From positions 1 through 44,326 of the IMG/VR virus record IMGVR_UViG_3300027852_000014: 44,326 bases of DNA; one strand, given 5' to 3'. Source of the DNA: a virus. Positions 7,305-24,935 of the stretch are shown here, piece after piece (positions within the stretch are counted from its first letter, which is position 1; each line of letters opens with the position of its first letter). The translations under genes and the position numbers were made by a program. The notes beneath the pieces were generated by a model, which did no database searches, had not been told where the DNA came from, and saw only the letters and a program-made list of their open reading frames with translations.

Positions 7305-7778
7305 TTACTGCTCCTTTAAATATTTTTCCCGAATCTTTTCTAAATACTTCCGTCCATCCTCTTTTCGCTCTTTGGAAGACTCTTCTGTTATATATCTTTC
7401 ATAAGAATCAAGAACACTAACTTTGAGATCCATAAGATTAATATGGCCATTCATAAACTGGTTCCCGTAATAGGAAAGATCCTTACACAGAGCGTCTTGA
7501 TGATTCCAGACTGAGTTAAGTCTTGAGCTCGTGGAGCGCGCTCCACACTCTATACATTCATATATTGCAATTCTAAACAGAAAATCATGTGTGCTAAAAC
7601 AAAATACTTCCTTCATATTATTAGGAAATGCATTGCTAGACATCTTTGCATGACGGAGTCGACACTTAGACATCTTAACTTTTCCGCATTTAACGCAAGA
7701 GCTCCCAACATATCCTATTTTAGAGCATACCGCCTTCTTTTGATCATGTTTGCAAAATAATTTACCTATAATTCCCAT
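7305..7778 (-). CDS. Cys-rich hypothetical protein (putative zinc-binding)
   Basis: 157 aa with SD AAAGGAG. Contains CVKCG and CIECG pairs. Confidence 0.65.
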   Translation of the reverse strand: MGIIGKLFCKHDQKKAVCSKIGYVGSSCVKCGKVKMSKCRLRHAKMSSNAFPNNMKEVFCFSTHDFLFRIAIYECIECGARSTSSRLNSVWNHQDALCKDLSYYGNQFMNGHINLMDLKVSVLDSYERYITEESSKERKEDGRKYLEKIREKYLKEQ

Positions 7779-8410: not shown

Positions 8411-8674
8411 CTATATCTGTTCTATCGTTATCTTTCCTATCTCGCATTTTTGCAGTTCAATTCTTTTCTTGGCTACTCCTCTCTTTAAAAGCAAGCGTAT
8501 GTGTTTCATTGCAGTTGATTTAATCTTCCACGACGTGAACGAGTTAGGTGACGTTCTATACCTAAATAAAGCAACGGTCCTTGTCCCGTCCTCATAGTAT
8601 GTATACATTCCTCCCTCTTGGATATTTTTGTAAAACAGACCATTTACTTTAATTCTAAAAAAAGTGTCGTTCAT
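8411..8674 (-). CDS. Hypothetical protein
   Basis: 87-aa ORF in the same-strand array. Confidence 0.6.
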   Translation of the reverse strand: MNDTFFRIKVNGLFYKNIQEGGMYTYYEDGTRTVALFRYRTSPNSFTSWKIKSTAMKHIRLLLKRGVAKKRIELQKCEIGKITIEQI

Positions 8675-8676
8675 GA

Positions 8677-9102
8677 TTAGTCCTTCAAAAGTTCAGGGTT
8701 TTCATGTATGCTTCCGATTATTTCTATTTCAGCTCTATCACATTGTATAAAATCGAATTCATAATCCACATAGCCTTTATAATCTTTATTTTTTACTTCC
8801 TTTAAAACAAAGCATGGGTTGCATATATCCCTTTCAACAGTCCTCAACGTTTTCTTGCCAATTATAGAATTAAACCTAACAACATCCCCCTCATAAATAA
8901 GCTTTCCGTTCTTGTCTTTTAATCCTGTGCATTGTTGGATTATGAGCCGCTCTTTATTAATTTCTGGTGCAACTGCATTACCAAAGTCCGAAAACAGATT
9001 CCCATTCTCTGCTATATAAAACAAGCCAATTCCATTATATGGATGATTATACTTATATGTTTTGTCTTTATCATCCCACACTCTAAACTTAAATCTATCC
9101 AT
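8677..9102 (-). CDS. YopX-family protein (paralogue 1)
   Basis: FKFRVWD N-terminus, QCTGLKDKNGKLIYEGD core and IIGSIHENPELL C-terminus. Confidence 0.8.
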   Translation of the reverse strand: MDRFKFRVWDDKDKTYKYNHPYNGIGLFYIAENGNLFSDFGNAVAPEINKERLIIQQCTGLKDKNGKLIYEGDVVRFNSIIGKKTLRTVERDICNPCFVLKEVKNKDYKGYVDYEFDFIQCDRAEIEIIGSIHENPELLKD

Positions 9103-11746: not shown

Positions 11747-11952
11747 TTTAAAAATCTCTTCACGATACTTTCATGATTAAACATATGGCAAAACTCTACA
11801 AATGCCTTTGCTGGCATTTTACGCTCCCCATGCTCATAATATATATATGCGCGTTCTGCTACGTTTATTTTCTTTGCAACATCTTTCTGCGTCATTGAAG
11901 CTTCTTTGCGTTTTTTCTTTAGAAAAGTTGCTTGTTTTTTATTGGTTATCAT
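11731..11952 (-). CDS. XRE/Cro-type helix-turn-helix protein
   Basis: MTQKDVAKKINVAERAYIYYEHGERKMP is a typical HTH_3 pattern. 73 aa. Confidence 0.8.
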   Translation of the reverse strand: MITNKKQATFLKKKRKEASMTQKDVAKKINVAERAYIYYEHGERKMPAKAFVEFCHMFNHESIVKRFLKWIKS

Positions 11953-12328
11953 TTAATAGTTCCTTGTTTTCATGTATGTTTCCGATTATTTCTATACTGT
12001 CTATATAAAGCAGATCATCAATATAATCACCTTTAACAGACTGGAACCTGAATTGCAGGTAGCTCTCATCCCAGAATATTAAGCATCTTGTTGGTTCTCT
12101 AAAATACTTATCTGATTCATATATAACAACATCACCTTCATAAATAAGCTTTCCGTTCTTATCCTTTAGTCCTGTGCATTGTTCTATAATGCAGTCATCT
12201 ACAGAAAATCCATCATCTTCTATGTCGGCACCATTTTGCATCGTGAGAAACCCATAATTGCAAAGAGACATGCTTTCAATACATCCTCCATCACTCTTAT
12301 CCCAAACTCTAAACCTAAATCTATTCAT
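11939..12328 (-). CDS. YopX-family protein (paralogue 2)
   Basis: FRFRVWD, QCTGLKDKNGKLIYEGD, IIGNIHENKELL. Confidence 0.8.
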   Translation of the reverse strand: MNRFRFRVWDKSDGGCIESMSLCNYGFLTMQNGADIEDDGFSVDDCIIEQCTGLKDKNGKLIYEGDVVIYESDKYFREPTRCLIFWDESYLQFRFQSVKGDYIDDLLYIDSIEIIGNIHENKELLNDNQ

Positions 12329-17805: not shown

Positions 17806-18384
17806 TTAGCAAAAATCTCTTAACCCCCTTGATCTAGATGGGTGTCTCATTTTTCTTATAGCTCTATTTTCAATCTGTTGGATTCGAGCCCTTGATATAT
17901 TAAAATAATCGCTAGCTTCTTTTATCGTTTCTCCTTCAAGGAACCTTCTTCTTATTATGTTTTCTTCCATTGGCGTAAGAGTAGATAAAGCGGTTGATAA
18001 TAAAGACTTAACCTCATCATTTCCAACGCGGGAAATCAGTTGATGCTCTCCATCATATCCCTGACTCTCAAGTAAAGGGACAGCTTCTTCAAAGTCCATT
18101 TCTATTTTATTAAAATTGCTATTAAAGCATTCTTCAATATGTCTCACAGGGAACAGGTCTGTATACTTGCATCCAAGAGTCTCTTCTATCTTGATAATAC
18201 TATCTTTTAATTTACCAGTTATTTTGCTATAAGGAGTTGACTTAAGGTTTAAAAAATCTCCTATAGTATTTTGCGTAACTCCAGAAACCCTGGATAACTC
18301 AGCAGATGTTTTAAACCCTTTTTCGTTCATTTTTTGTATGAAGTAATTATTCTTTACCTTTATCTCAATCATATAGTCTTTCAA
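17806..18384 (-). CDS. Sigma-70 region-4 domain protein fused to an N-terminal XRE-like HTH
   Basis: C-terminus LTPMEENIIRRRFLEGETIKEASDYFNISRARIQQIENRAIRKMRH matches the region-4 pattern. N-terminus GFKTSAELSRVSGVTQNTIGDFLN. No region-2 motif seen. TTG start. Confidence 0.7.
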   Translation of the reverse strand: MKDYMIEIKVKNNYFIQKMNEKGFKTSAELSRVSGVTQNTIGDFLNLKSTPYSKITGKLKDSIIKIEETLGCKYTDLFPVRHIEECFNSNFNKIEMDFEEAVPLLESQGYDGEHQLISRVGNDEVKSLLSTALSTLTPMEENIIRRRFLEGETIKEASDYFNISRARIQQIENRAIRKMRHPSRSRGLRDFC

Positions 18385-20388: not shown

Positions 20389-20559
20389 TTAGTGTTTTGT
20401 TGCGTCACTCATAAGCATTTCGCATTCAGCAATCATCTCATTTACTCTCTTTCTCTTCGCCTCACGGATAACGTGGATCGCCTTTCTTGCACTTGCTTTA
20501 GCATGTCTATCAATATACCCATCAAGACGTGTTCGTTTATTAAGATTCTTTATTCGCAT
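20389..20559 (-). CDS. Hypothetical basic protein (56 aa)
   Basis: ATG 20559 is preceded by AGGAGG. The track start 20583 is a GTG. Confidence 0.6.
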   Translation of the reverse strand: MRIKNLNKRTRLDGYIDRHAKASARKAIHVIREAKRKRVNEMIAECEMLMSDATKH

Positions 20560-20968
20560 CAATAGCCTCCTGACATTCTTCACGTGTGAAGTAAACTAGG
20601 CTGCTTAGTATACGTCCAAGACCGTCGACAAATATACCAGCATTGCTAACACTGCTTATTCTAACCTTTATAGGAACGTAGAAATCTTCTGATGAAACTT
20701 CTGCAGAGAGCGTATGCACAATAAACACTCCTTCGTTTCTCGTCATCTTCTTAAACAGCATCTCTTCCTTCGGAAAAGAAGGAAGCTTGGTAGAACAATA
20801 GTATTTAAACTGTCCTTTGTGAAAGATATCACTCATCTTTTTAATAGACTTTGTGATCACATTATCGCCAACACCAAGCTTATCCCCGATGCCAGCAGCT
20901 TTAATGCCAGGGTTATTCTGAATGATTTTACGTATCAGTACTTCTTTATTTTTATAATGCTTACCCAT
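20540..20968 (-). CDS. Winged-helix DNA-binding protein (putative)
   Basis: ATG 20968 is preceded by AAAGGAG. IIQNNPGIKAAGIGDKLGVGDNVITKSIKKM looks HTH-like. Confidence 0.6.
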   Translation of the reverse strand: MGKHYKNKEVLIRKIIQNNPGIKAAGIGDKLGVGDNVITKSIKKMSDIFHKGQFKYYCSTKLPSFPKEEMLFKKMTRNEGVFIVHTLSAEVSSEDFYVPIKVRISSVSNAGIFVDGLGRILSSLVYFTREECQEAIDANKES

Positions 20969-20972
20969 TGTT

Positions 20973-23150
20973 TTAGTCTCCTTTTCTATAGTAAAAATTA
21001 CCGTCACGTTCTTTTTTAAATGTCCATATCTGCTTGAACTGGACACTAAAGAACCTGTTACTTAATGGCTTCTCACCATTATTATCACACCAAGCCTTGT
21101 AGTCAACGTACAAATCAAATGCTGATCTGCGTTTTGCCTTAAGTGATTCGGCGAAATTCTTAATAGGATCATTAACAGACGTGAAGTCGTCCATAAGCTC
21201 TTTCTGTTCTTCAAGAACAATAAATGATCCTGCTTCTTTCAGCTTTCTGTATCCGTCATACATCCAGTTGAATATCTCGTTTGGCTTCTTAGCAAGCTTA
21301 CGCTCTAGCCCTATCTCTTTGATCTTGTCACCAGTACCAGCGTCACAAGCATCAATATATTTCTCATTGAACTTAACAATACACAACCTCCGAAGGAAAC
21401 CATCTGTCGTATCGTTGCTCAGCATAAAGCTGTTCATGTTCAGAATATGTTTGCACCGAGGCGTGAACTCGATGGCATCTTTACCTTTTTTAGCAGCACT
21501 GATTTTCTCCCCAGACACAAGCTTCTTAAACATGCTGCTGCTCACACTACTTGGAGCCTCTGTCGCGAGATTAAGCATACTGCTCTTAAGACGTAATGGC
21601 TCGAACTCGTTCTTGAACCGATCAGGGTTTACCATAGACACGTTCTTGTCACCGATGGCATCTGATAAGCACTTAGTGAACACAGATTTACCATTAGCCC
21701 CACTGCCGATAAAGTAGAACGCTTTCTCTAGCCTGCAGTCACTAAACAGACAGTACCCTGCAATCTGTTGGAGCAATGAGTACTTGTCATCAGCATCACC
21801 AGCCACGTCATATACGAACCGTTCCCAATCTGTCCGCTCAACACCACAGTCTGGTGTGTACGAGTAGTCGGCCTGGAATGACGACATGTCGCTCTCGTCG
21901 TGTGGCAGGAAGTCACCACTCTCTAGGCACAGTGTCCCATTTTGGAAGACAAATATTTCTTTCTTGTTGAACACGCTGTATGACGGCGTCATTGATTGGA
22001 TAACAGTCACAACGTTTCGTAGCATTGTAGCCGTTACGCTTTCGCTAAGAACGTCATACACATACGCTTCGATGTCGTTTTTACGACGCTCGCGCCAGCA
22101 GCCACATGAATACTCATAGAAACCAACCTGATCCTGATACGATATATTGTGGCTCTTAAGAACCTCAGTCGCTATCTCATGCTGCGTCGGCTTACGATCA
22201 AGGCCTTTTGTGTCGATACCTTTCTGCTTACACATAGATAGGAAGCGGGCCATTATGTCAGGTGCGTACCGTAAGCCTCCTTCATTAATAATATTCTCAG
22301 CATCGATATAATCTTTTACATTCTCTATAATGTGACGCAGGCCATTTTTTTTCTTGAGTCCTTTTAACGACCCATGCTTCATATAGTGCTCGTTGATATC
22401 TTTACAGTCAGGGCTATGCCACACCTCAAAATCTTTATCGATGCAATACTTAATAGCTTTTGCTAGGAATTTCTGCCCTGCCTCGTCATTATCGAACGCA
22501 AGCACGATCTTATCATGTAGCTTCGCCATTGAATATATGTTGTGCCCAGCATACGACTCATAGCCTTCTTGAATAAATGTAAGGGAATCTAGCGTGCCTT
22601 CGCAGAGTACTATTGGCAAAGGATCTGCCTGAGGTGGCTTGAAGCCAAAAGGCACGCTGTTACCCTTGCTGTATAAGTACTTCGGAGTTTGGTTGTTTAC
22701 GGCTCTGCCTATATGACCATGTACTCGTCCGTTCCTCCAGCAAGGAATTATAATTCTATTATTATTGTAGCCTATTTTCAAGAGATTTATCGTCTCATCA
22801 GTAAATCCACGACTACGCAAATATTCACGCCCGCTTTCAGGCATGGACATGTGCCATCTGGCAATGTCGCGCTGCATGCTGTCAGTGTCTTGAGGAGGCT
22901 TAACCTCTTGACCCGTCATCTCTAAATATTGTTTATATGCTTGGCTATTGTCTCCGCCAAAGCGATGCGCGGCAATCAAGGCAATTACATCGCCCCAGTC
23001 ACCTGTTTTGAAATCGACCCATGAATCGTGATCGACCTTTAATGATGTCATATTGGTTGATCCAGGCTCCAATGACGACGTGCGACCATTGACCACCTTT
23101 TTGCCCATAACATCTTTTATATAATGTAAACAACTTATTTTATGTTTCAT
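20973..23150 (-). CDS. Bifunctional DNA primase (Toprim) / SF3 (D5/P4-type) helicase
   Basis: Toprim VLCEGTLDS and AFDNDEAGQKF. P-loop FIGSGANGKSVF. 725 aa. SD GAGGAG. Confidence 0.85.
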   Translation of the reverse strand: MKHKISCLHYIKDVMGKKVVNGRTSSLEPGSTNMTSLKVDHDSWVDFKTGDWGDVIALIAAHRFGGDNSQAYKQYLEMTGQEVKPPQDTDSMQRDIARWHMSMPESGREYLRSRGFTDETINLLKIGYNNNRIIIPCWRNGRVHGHIGRAVNNQTPKYLYSKGNSVPFGFKPPQADPLPIVLCEGTLDSLTFIQEGYESYAGHNIYSMAKLHDKIVLAFDNDEAGQKFLAKAIKYCIDKDFEVWHSPDCKDINEHYMKHGSLKGLKKKNGLRHIIENVKDYIDAENIINEGGLRYAPDIMARFLSMCKQKGIDTKGLDRKPTQHEIATEVLKSHNISYQDQVGFYEYSCGCWRERRKNDIEAYVYDVLSESVTATMLRNVVTVIQSMTPSYSVFNKKEIFVFQNGTLCLESGDFLPHDESDMSSFQADYSYTPDCGVERTDWERFVYDVAGDADDKYSLLQQIAGYCLFSDCRLEKAFYFIGSGANGKSVFTKCLSDAIGDKNVSMVNPDRFKNEFEPLRLKSSMLNLATEAPSSVSSSMFKKLVSGEKISAAKKGKDAIEFTPRCKHILNMNSFMLSNDTTDGFLRRLCIVKFNEKYIDACDAGTGDKIKEIGLERKLAKKPNEIFNWMYDGYRKLKEAGSFIVLEEQKELMDDFTSVNDPIKNFAESLKAKRRSAFDLYVDYKAWCDNNGEKPLSNRFFSVQFKQIWTFKKERDGNFYYRKGD

Positions 23151-23174
23151 CCCTCATCTCCTCTGCCGACTATT

Positions 23175-23204
23175 AGTATATGTTTAAAAAGAAGCCAAAG
23201 TCAA
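23175..23204 (-). promoter_or_regulatory. Promoter TTGACT-18-TATACT for the primase operon
   Basis: Plus-strand agtcaa at 23199-23204 and agtata at 23175-23180. Confidence 0.6.
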
Positions 23205-23240
23205 GCGATTTTTTAATGTTTTTTTGTTCATGTATTTTTG

Positions 23241-23538
23241 TGTGGAGCCATCCTCCATTTTGCCTCCACAAAACAGCGTTTTGCCTCCACACTTGCCTCC
23301 ACACTCTCGCTTCGGTCTAGTTTTGTTCACCCAAAAATCTATGTATGTGGAGCGTTATGTGGAGGATGGAGGTATTTTGTGGAGGATCAGTGGAGGCAAA
23401 TGTGGAAGATTAAACCATTGATAAACGGCTATTGTGGAGGCATGGAGCCTTTTTTTAAATTGAGTTATGTTTTATGTAAAAGTAAAAGAAATATATATAC
23501 CCCCACAACGACTTGAGTTTTGCCTCCATGCCTCCACA
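23241..23538. repeat. Iteron array (TGTGGAGG / CCTCCACA) with AT-rich core: putative replication origin or master operator
   Basis: Full 8-mers (at most 1 mismatch), forward at 23241, 23346, 23358, 23378, 23401, 23433; reverse at 23263, 23284, 23296, 23531. Half sites at 23252, 23367, 23391, 23443, 23523. A 15-nt inverted repeat (23433-23447 / 23524-23538) flanks an AT-rich spacer. Confidence 0.65.
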
Positions 23539-23655
23539 CTTTGCTTTTTTTATGCTTGATTTTTGACTAAATATACACTAGTGTTTAAACATGAAGGGGC
23601 GGTGGATATTTTTTCTACTTTTATTATCGACTTACCACATCGTCTCTTCCTCCCC

Positions 23656-23684
23656 TTGACATGCCATAACATATCTATTATAAT
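23656..23684 (+). promoter_or_regulatory. Perfect consensus promoter TTGACA-17-TATAAT
   Basis: -35 at 23656-23661 (TTGACATGC), -10 at 23679-23684. The ATG at 23691 is the 7th nt after the -10. Confidence 0.8.
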
Positions 23685-23690
23685 CAAACC

Positions 23691-24248
23691 ATGAAGCGGA
23701 AAGACAAATGGATAGATAAAAACCAGCTGTACACAGTACGGGAAATCGCCTTCAATACTAATAGGTCGATAAAGACAGTATCTACATGCTGGATAAGACG
23801 CGAGGGTCTAAAAGAGTTAACTGGGGCTAGGCGTTCTAATAAAATGCTTGTTGATGGGAAAGATCTAAAGAAGTTTCTCAAAAAAAAGAAAGAACATGAA
23901 ATAAATTCTCAAGGTCGAAAAAAAGGCATATGTGAAATATGCGAGTCAGAGGCTATTCTTAACTCTATGAAAGAGTGTTCTAAATGTGAAACATTAATAG
24001 ACACTATTTTTAATGAAGAGTGTCGCAAACACGATCACGAGAATGATAAAGAGGCTATTTGGAAGCTTATGTATGGAATATTCTCCATACCGCATAATGA
24101 TTTAGAGGAGTACATTGAAAGCAGAGGTAAAAAAGCTAAGCTTGAACTTATGCAAGATATTCAATGGGCTCTTATGGAAGATGATAAAATATTTCTTAAA
24201 AAGGTGCGGGAACAAGCGCCTAATTTATACAGGAGGGTAGTAAGATAA
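23691..24248 (+). CDS. HTH-containing protein, first gene of the late arm (regulator or packaging-associated)
   Basis: 185 aa. YTVREIAFNTNRSIKTVSTCWIRREGLK looks like an excisionase/MerR-type HTH. CxxC...CxxC in the middle. Confidence 0.6.
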   Translation: MKRKDKWIDKNQLYTVREIAFNTNRSIKTVSTCWIRREGLKELTGARRSNKMLVDGKDLKKFLKKKKEHEINSQGRKKGICEICESEAILNSMKECSKCETLIDTIFNEECRKHDHENDKEAIWKLMYGIFSIPHNDLEEYIESRGKKAKLELMQDIQWALMEDDKIFLKKVREQAPNLYRRVVR

Positions 24249-24515: not shown

Positions 24516-24935
24516 ATGCCAGGAAAGGATAATCTTGTTCCGAATAGCGAGAGAACTCGGGAAGAGCTCCGAGCGATAACCACTAAAGGTGGCATTAAAT
24601 CTGGTCAGGTTCGGAGAGAAAAAAAGAAGCTACGTGAATTAGCAACCGATATACTCAATTTAAAGGCACCTGTGCATAAAGTGGAAGCGATTAGAGAGCA
24701 TTATCCCGAAGCGACCTCTAATATGACGCTGAGCGAGCTTATATTGTTCGCGCAGATGAAAAAGGCATCTGATGGAGATGCTAAGGCTTTTGAGTTGCTT
24801 AGGGATACTGCGGGGCAAAAACCTGGTGAAGTGATTGAAACGGTGAATACAAATATGAATACTGATGTCACATTAACTGACGAGCAAATTACAGAGGCTG
24901 GAAATATTATCGCTAAGATGATTAAGGGCGAATAA
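24516..24935 (+). CDS. Putative terminase small subunit
   Basis: 139 aa immediately upstream of the large terminase. Basic N-terminal segment KGGIKSGQVRREKKK. The function is a positional inference. Confidence 0.5.
   Translation: MPGKDNLVPNSERTREELRAITTKGGIKSGQVRREKKKLRELATDILNLKAPVHKVEAIREHYPEATSNMTLSELILFAQMKKASDGDAKAFELLRDTAGQKPGEVIETVNTNMNTDVTLTDEQITEAGNIIAKMIKGE

Follow-up and report, generated by a model that had tools for sequence, protein, structure and literature searches.

The window, by which we mean the whole stretch of 44,326 nt analysed here, is a complete or near-complete phage genome of metagenomic origin. The same proteins are encoded by other assemblies, 44,267 and 44,340 nt long, whose starting points differ, consistent with a molecule that is circular or circularly permuted. 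No relatives at the DNA level were found among 50,697 deposited phage genomes, a search of JGI metagenome contigs with the large terminase (TerL) gave no match, and a search for close relatives via the primase-helicase found only two remote loci in IMG/VR. The genes are arranged in two divergent arms. The minus-strand, early arm (approximately 6–23 kb) encodes the primase-helicase, a PD-(D/E)XK exonuclease, a protein with sigma-70 region 4, a Sak4-like annealing protein, an SSB, an SF2 helicase and nucleases, as well as two paralogues (8677–9102 and 11939–12328, minus strand) of the 'unknown function' family phrog_98. The plus-strand arm encodes a T1-like TerL, a portal, a Mu-F-like protein, structural proteins and an endolysin. 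The phage proteins searched yielded no DNA polymerase. The cumulative GC skew reaches its minimum at approximately 23 kb, in agreement with an origin there, but the direction of transcription changes at the same place, so that the minimum is not independent evidence.

Between the two arms lies a non-coding region containing an array of short repeats around an AT-rich core. Its features and the adjoining helicase gene are as follows.

20973–23150, minus strand: primase-helicase gene, 725 aa, with a Toprim primase, a D5_N collar, an SF3 helicase and a C-terminal Pox_D5/P4-type domain
23151–23690, strandless: non-coding region of 540 nt between the divergent operons, holding the entire element
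23204–23175, minus strand: leftward promoter-like site TTGACT-18-TATACT of the primase-helicase operon, 10 of 12 consensus matches
23241–23257, plus strand: outermost site TGTGGAGCCATCCTCCA, one plus-orientation repeat with an inverted half-site (TGGAG-5 nt-CTCCA)
23258–23303, minus strand: three direct repeats TT(T/C)TTGCCTCCACA, reading TGTGGAGGCAA on the minus strand, start-to-start distances 21 and 12 nt
23260–23270, 23281–23291 and 23293–23303: the TTGCCTCCACA direct repeats themselves, from the sequence check
23346–23448, plus strand: left iteron set, six repeats (23346, 23358, 23378, 23389, 23401, 23433) and half-sites at 23365 and 23441
23410–23425, plus strand: 16-mer TTAAACCATTGATAAA, between iterons, single copy in the window genome
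23433–23447 and 23524–23538: perfect 15-nt inverted repeat bracketing the AT core, arms 100% complementary, 76 nt between them
23449–23499, strandless: AT-rich core, 88% AT, proposed DNA-unwinding element
23500–23538, minus strand: right iteron set, CCCCCACA (23500), CCTCCATG (23521) and CCTCCACA (23531)
23575–23584: 10-bp palindrome ACACTAGTGT
23656–23684, plus strand: rightward promoter TTGACA-17-TATAAT, perfect sigma-70 consensus, 12 of 12 matches
23241, 23346, 23358, 23378, 23389, 23401 and 23433: plus-orientation TGTGGAGG sites from the motif scan
23263, 23284, 23296, 23500 and 23531: minus-orientation TGTGGAGG sites from the motif scan
TGTGGAGGCA: proposed iteron target duplex of the primase-helicase C-terminal domain

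A first-pass annotation of this DNA had described the repeats, the palindrome and a degenerate site GGTGGAT at 23601–23607, and all of its coordinates agree with the sequence. It had also described 23521–23538 as the reverse complement of 23433–23447, a relation that holds for the 15-nt arms listed above; as single-stranded DNA, this inverted repeat forms a 15-bp stem (z = −3.8). Where it had counted about 13 repeat copies in the 540-nt gap, we find 12 sites with at most one mismatch to TGTGGAGG, all within 23241–23538 and seven of them exact, in addition to approximately four half-sites of the form (A/C)ATGGAG(G/C) at 23252–23257, 23365–23371, 23441–23448 and 23521–23528. The array units measure 8–11 bp and occur in mixed orientation. 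Repeats of the left set, which faces the AT-rich core, are spaced at 12, 20, 11, 12 and 32 nt. The palindrome ACACTAGTGT gave no sign of conservation or function.

The repeats and their non-random clustering are direct observations. Across the 44,326 nt, TGTGGAGG has 44 matches at up to one mismatch, compared with 18.9 ± 4.5 in shuffled sequences, and 12 of these 44 are packed into 298 nt, or 0.7% of the genome; the exact 8-mer is still more concentrated, with seven of its nine genomic copies inside 23241–23538. We compared the highest number of exact copies of any one non-low-complexity 8-mer per 300-nt window with the same quantity in 200 genomes simulated under a first-order Markov model. 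The array reached seven copies, the simulations two to four, and the runner-up cluster of the real genome four. The cluster is thus the densest of short repeats in this 44-kb genome and lies beyond chance expectation.

Several other contents of the gap were considered and set aside. A 92-aa ORF at 23238–23516 was dismissed, as it has a TTG start, is made of the repeats and is absent from the source annotation; the gene calls of the source metagenome place nothing within 23151–23690. A terminator-like match at 23436–23452 is no better than chance and belongs to the iteron palindrome. A structured RNA was rejected likewise, as Rfam yielded only hairpin-driven matches to miRNA models, at 15–21 bits against gathering scores of 50–200, and a tRNA scan of the region found none.

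The stretch between the inverted 15-mers had been called strongly AT-rich, and this holds: positions 23450–23499 are 88% AT compared with 61% for the genome, making this the second most AT-rich 50-nt window genome-wide. By nearest-neighbour duplex stability the core falls among the 0.04% least stable positions, and it ranks only fifth least stable among the non-overlapping 50-nt windows of the genome. The AT-rich core is striking, then, but not unique.

The gene adjoining the array encodes an SF3 (D5/P4-type) primase-helicase with a Walker A motif and a D5_N collar, and its family and predicted fold are likewise shown here. The 725-aa protein matches Toprim_2, D5_N, DUF5906 and Pox_D5 in Pfam, scores 152 bits against the NCBIfam model TIGR01613, 'phage/plasmid primase, P4 family' (cutoff 108.7), and has an invariant GxGxNGKS Walker A (G482, G484, N486, G487, K488 and S489). 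Its best sequence match in the PDB is 7ola (also 7om0), the SaPI5 primase-helicase PriRep5 (E = 5.7e-21), to which its overall identity is low, only approximately 20%. An AF2 model built from 29 sequences (mean pLDDT 83) also has 7ola_A as its top Foldseek match (E = 8e-23, target TM 0.71–0.78). The phmmer alignment to PriRep5 ends at residue 707 of the query and residue 744 of the chain and so reaches into the C-terminal domain, which in PriRep5 comprises residues 682–797 and was deleted by the authors of that study (PMC9371898). In the window protein, Pox_D5 matches residues 660–720 at 25.8 bits (cutoff 21.4). The AF2 model of residues 615–716 is all-helical by DSSP with no clear wing, and confidence falls after residue 700, so that homology, rather than a clean model, supports a predicted winged helix at the C-terminus. 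No Rep- or O-like initiator was found among the neighbouring proteins searched.

We fetched 8–12 kb around each of 26 loci with full-length primase-helicase homologues (25–36% identity) and located, in each, the stretch of fetched DNA in which exact copies of an 8-mer are packed most densely. These loci are not syntenic with the window and so provide a useful independent sample. At 12 of the 26, the top cluster (5–10 copies) has its start in the interval from −97 to +24 nt relative to the stop codon of the helicase gene, and at two others (L019 and L024) the second-best cluster abuts that codon, giving 14 of 26. At the remaining 12, the DNA fetched contained no array next to the gene; the association is accordingly frequent and not universal. 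The recurrence of analogous arrays near homologous genes is thus directly observed, and it extends to their architecture. Orientation patterns are ++--+, ++--++ or +++--++, that is, one way, a short reversed run and then the first way again, and every array contains a 40-nt window that is 75–95% AT, in loci averaging 47–69% AT. Read on the strand of the helicase gene, the window array is ++ [AT] ------ +++ -, the same A-B-A plan. The iteron itself varies by lineage (GTGACGCA, CTGTCACC, AAGTGCCC, AACGTACT, ATGACAGA and others), and two homologues with 76% identical C-terminal domains (P0017 and P0021) have near-identical iterons. The window array is unusual only in sitting upstream of its helicase gene, where it starts 91 nt from the ATG between divergent promoters; the 3′ end of this gene overlaps the next gene, with no non-coding gap there.

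Three further observations were made at the homologous loci. A second kind of array, with four to seven copies of (A)GCGACTA(TC) in a single orientation, is present at 8626–8750 of L005 and 5361–5453 of L024, and also in L026, L027 and L029, approximately 0.85–1.3 kb past the helicase gene; it does not form part of the mixed-orientation array beside the stop codon. At 7372–7457 of L004, the iteron array enters the 3′ end of the gene for P0002, and the C-terminal tail of this protein, SDAQSDAEHDAQSDA, consists of translated repeats. Positions 630–900 of L019 hold 11 direct copies of CAATGCCA, 4 kb upstream of the helicase gene and denser than the array at the gene end.

We consider it probable, at roughly 0.75, that the 540-nt region is an iteron origin of the SaPI/P4 type that is recognised by the neighbouring primase-helicase. 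The Rep proteins of SaPIs are initiators as well as helicases, with a C-terminal winged helix that recognises short iterons; the SaPI ori has 6–12 iterons next to rep and an AT-rich region near its centre, with at least two iterons on each side in opposite directions, and no separate loader is involved (PMC9371898). The right-hand unit of the window array follows this layout at each point, with six plus-orientation sites at 23346–23440, the 88% AT tract, and three minus-orientation sites at 23500–23538. For an Enterococcus phage encoding a PriRep5 homologue, an origin has likewise been inferred from an AT-rich region surrounded by seven 10-bp iterons (PMC13517437). That iterons, an AT-rich element and an adjacent initiator or primase gene together denote an origin had been proposed in the first-pass annotation, and the proposal gains support from the kinship with PriRep5 and from the arrays, of other sequence, that flank homologous genes.

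The origin reading rests on homology and architecture, from which we infer a sequence of binding, melting, self-loading and bidirectional replication, possibly with autoregulation. The 725-aa primase-helicase would bind the 8–10-bp iterons TGTGGAGG(CA) through its C-terminal domain, and the opposed sets at 23346–23448 and 23500–23538 would place helicase hexamers on both flanks of the 50-bp, 88% AT core. The core would then melt and the helicase load itself without a separate loader, after which the Toprim domain would lay primers for extension by a host polymerase. Forks would depart in both directions, each co-directional with transcription of its gene arm. The third group of iterons (23241–23303), beside the helicase promoter, may serve cooperative binding or autoregulation. 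That this outer group could permit autoregulation is speculation on our part, and within it we point to the 23241–23257 site, 37 nt from the leftward −35, purely by inference, as a candidate.

The iterons also lie between two divergent promoter-like sites, both of which had been predicted at 23175–23204 and 23656–23684 and were recovered by our promoter scan, and it may be asked whether a phage transcription factor (p185, p142 or another protein) instead uses the repeats as operators or upstream activating sites, with no role for them in replication. The placement of the array speaks for such a function, as do a below-cutoff HTH_17 match in p185 (E = 9e-4) and the small palindrome formed by the 23241–23257 site close to the leftward −35. 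The geometry is less favourable. Approximately 450 nt of repeat-bearing DNA lie upstream of both promoters, and no repeat covers a −35 or −10 element or a predicted start; the nearest repeats begin 37 nt (left) and 118 nt (right) upstream of the −35 hexamers, and the master early/late switch that had been suggested finds no support. The rightward promoter, being a perfect consensus, should need no activator. Moreover, at least 12 sites with an AT-rich core far exceed a typical operator, and the arrays of the relatives lie at the 3′ ends of genes and not in promoter regions. We therefore regard an exclusively transcriptional role as unlikely.

The two DNA-binding candidates named in the first-pass annotation fare no better as readers of the repeats. 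The wHTH protein p142 (20540–20968) had no significant match in family searches, and none to a DNA-binding family, its best being a sub-threshold HTH_24 hit (E = 0.17). The HTH protein p185 (23691–24248) is a near-orphan: a word-indexed search found no homologue, and an exhaustive search gave a single one (P0098 in L096), in a different context with no repeats around it. A single-sequence AF2 model of p185 was unusable (pLDDT 46.6). The binder of the iterons is thus most likely the C-terminal domain of the primase-helicase rather than p142 or p185.

The promoters themselves call for some comment. A GAGGAG ribosome-binding site follows the leftward promoter-like site. On the right, the ATG of p185 (23691) lies 7 nt past the −10 hexamer and Shine-Dalgarno sequences are absent, for which reason the p185 mRNA would be leaderless; its sole homologue, P0098, has an ordinary AGGAGG ribosome-binding site. 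The early arm also encodes the protein with sigma-70 region 4 (17806–18384, minus strand; E = 3e-15), suggesting that promoter recognition is directed by the phage, and despite the presence of this protein both promoters flanking the array resemble host sigma-70 sites.

The region is also directly upstream of the operon for p139, TerL, the portal and the Mu-F-like protein, and part of it could be concerned with packaging. The 139-aa protein p139 (24516–24935; phrog_2412, 'unknown function') is encoded immediately before TerL, as are its homologues in L007 and in Streptococcus phage MM1 (ORF30), and is 78% identical to its L007 counterpart, compared with only 55% for TerL; it probably represents an unannotated small-terminase family. 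TerL relatives L007–L011 share the structural module, and only L007, the nearest relative, which is cut 405 nt upstream of its small-terminase-like gene, is close enough for comparison. There, TTAAACCATTGATAAA matches at 137–150 and 298–313, in non-coding DNA upstream of that gene; 150 nt of very AT-rich DNA are enclosed by the two copies, which are inverted relative to each other and match perfectly over 13 nt. When the whole of IMG/VR was scanned for this 16-mer, at least 119 unrelated matches came up, a chance level.

Two readings that involve packaging were considered. In the first, 23151–23690 would be a shared hub, in which the iterons fire replication and set the helicase promoter, p139 reads the 16-mer, and initiation is coupled to the first packaging cut. 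We hold this to be unlikely as well; if true, it would mean that replication start and first packaging cut are physically coupled at one locus. In the second, the repeats would be a packaging region of the pac or cos type, with sites for the small terminase and an AT core acting as a bending or cutting zone. For this speak the position of the region, p139 as a small terminase, probable by position, and the identity of the 16-mer at 23410–23425 to that upstream of the p139 homologue in L007, and the variable assembly starts and a TerL resembling T1-like headful terminases fit a pac site somewhere in the genome. The TGTGGAGG repeats are, however, absent from L007, and two lineage-specific genes and approximately 1 kb lie between them and the small-terminase-like gene. 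In addition, the same array architecture recurs beside homologous helicase genes that stand far from packaging modules, and the TerL relatives L008 and L010 have no comparable arrays upstream of TerL. Packaging as the function of the repeats is accordingly quite improbable, and for part of the region a packaging or regulatory role is less supported than an origin.

Finally, firing of an oriC-type origin by host DnaA from degenerate DnaA boxes (TGTGGAGGC versus TGTGGATAA) can be given hardly any credence: the layout of boxes and AT-rich element recalls oriC and the opening six bases, TGTGGA, agree with the DnaA-box consensus, but TTATCCACA occurs nowhere in 23151–23690 at up to one mismatch, just three repeats come within two mismatches, a level met approximately 200 times genome-wide, and at the positions that depart from the box (TAA to GGC or GGA) the repeats agree with one another, pointing to another specificity.

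Returning to an iteron origin read by the primase-helicase, its closest parallel is the SaPI system. The window protein joins a primase to an SF3 helicase, as does PriRep5, its best solved relative, and as in SaPIs the short iterons form two opposed sets around an AT tract, about a dozen over approximately 300 bp, adjoining the helicase gene. The SaPI ori lies directly past the stop codon of the rep reading frame, whereas the window array lies upstream of its gene and between divergent promoters. The window iterons of 8–10 bp also differ from the penta- or hexanucleotides of SaPIs, and the window has a third iteron group, giving the A-B-A plan, and a Toprim/DnaG-like primase domain. It is, moreover, a lytic-looking 44-kb phage and not a satellite island.

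The alpha protein of phage P4 is both primase and helicase and binds its origin through a C-terminal winged helix specific for octamers, TGTTCACC, present in both orientations, and P4 needs both ori and crr, which are several kilobases apart. The window protein resembles alpha in passing the curated model for the P4-family primase C-terminus; it differs in that all sites lie within 300 bp and in that the primase domains are of a different type. Compared with the Enterococcus phage Abitsa (Efquatrovirus), for which the origin is also a prediction, the window differs in its repeats, which in Abitsa are seven in number, 10 bp long and of another sequence, as well as in lineage and in position. 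With the origin of lambda and its O protein, and with plasmids pPS10, RK2 and F, the window shares repeated initiator sites by an AT-rich element and an initiator gene near or over the origin. The iterons of those systems are, however, 17–22 bp long, in tandem and in one orientation, and their origins use Rep or O to recruit host DnaB via loaders, often with DnaA boxes; the window units are 8–10 bp in mixed orientation, DnaA boxes are absent, and the proposed initiator is itself the helicase.

Origins with iterons and an AT-rich element that are served by P4- or SaPI-type helicases are already established, and for an Enterococcus phage such an origin has been proposed in print; the putative window origin is hence not new in kind, and the current understanding of how such origins work is unchanged. 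It adds an unusual position and a useful family-wide pattern of arrays. Many uncultivated phages that encode a primase-helicase of this family share the SaPI-style plan of short opposed iterons, an AT-rich core and a putatively self-loading helicase, with an iteron sequence specific to each lineage, and the window offers a testable pair of putative origin and initiator for a phage lineage that lacks cultured relatives. Such pairs of protein and site may prove useful for studying how the C-terminal domain reads DNA, or for building orthogonal replicons.
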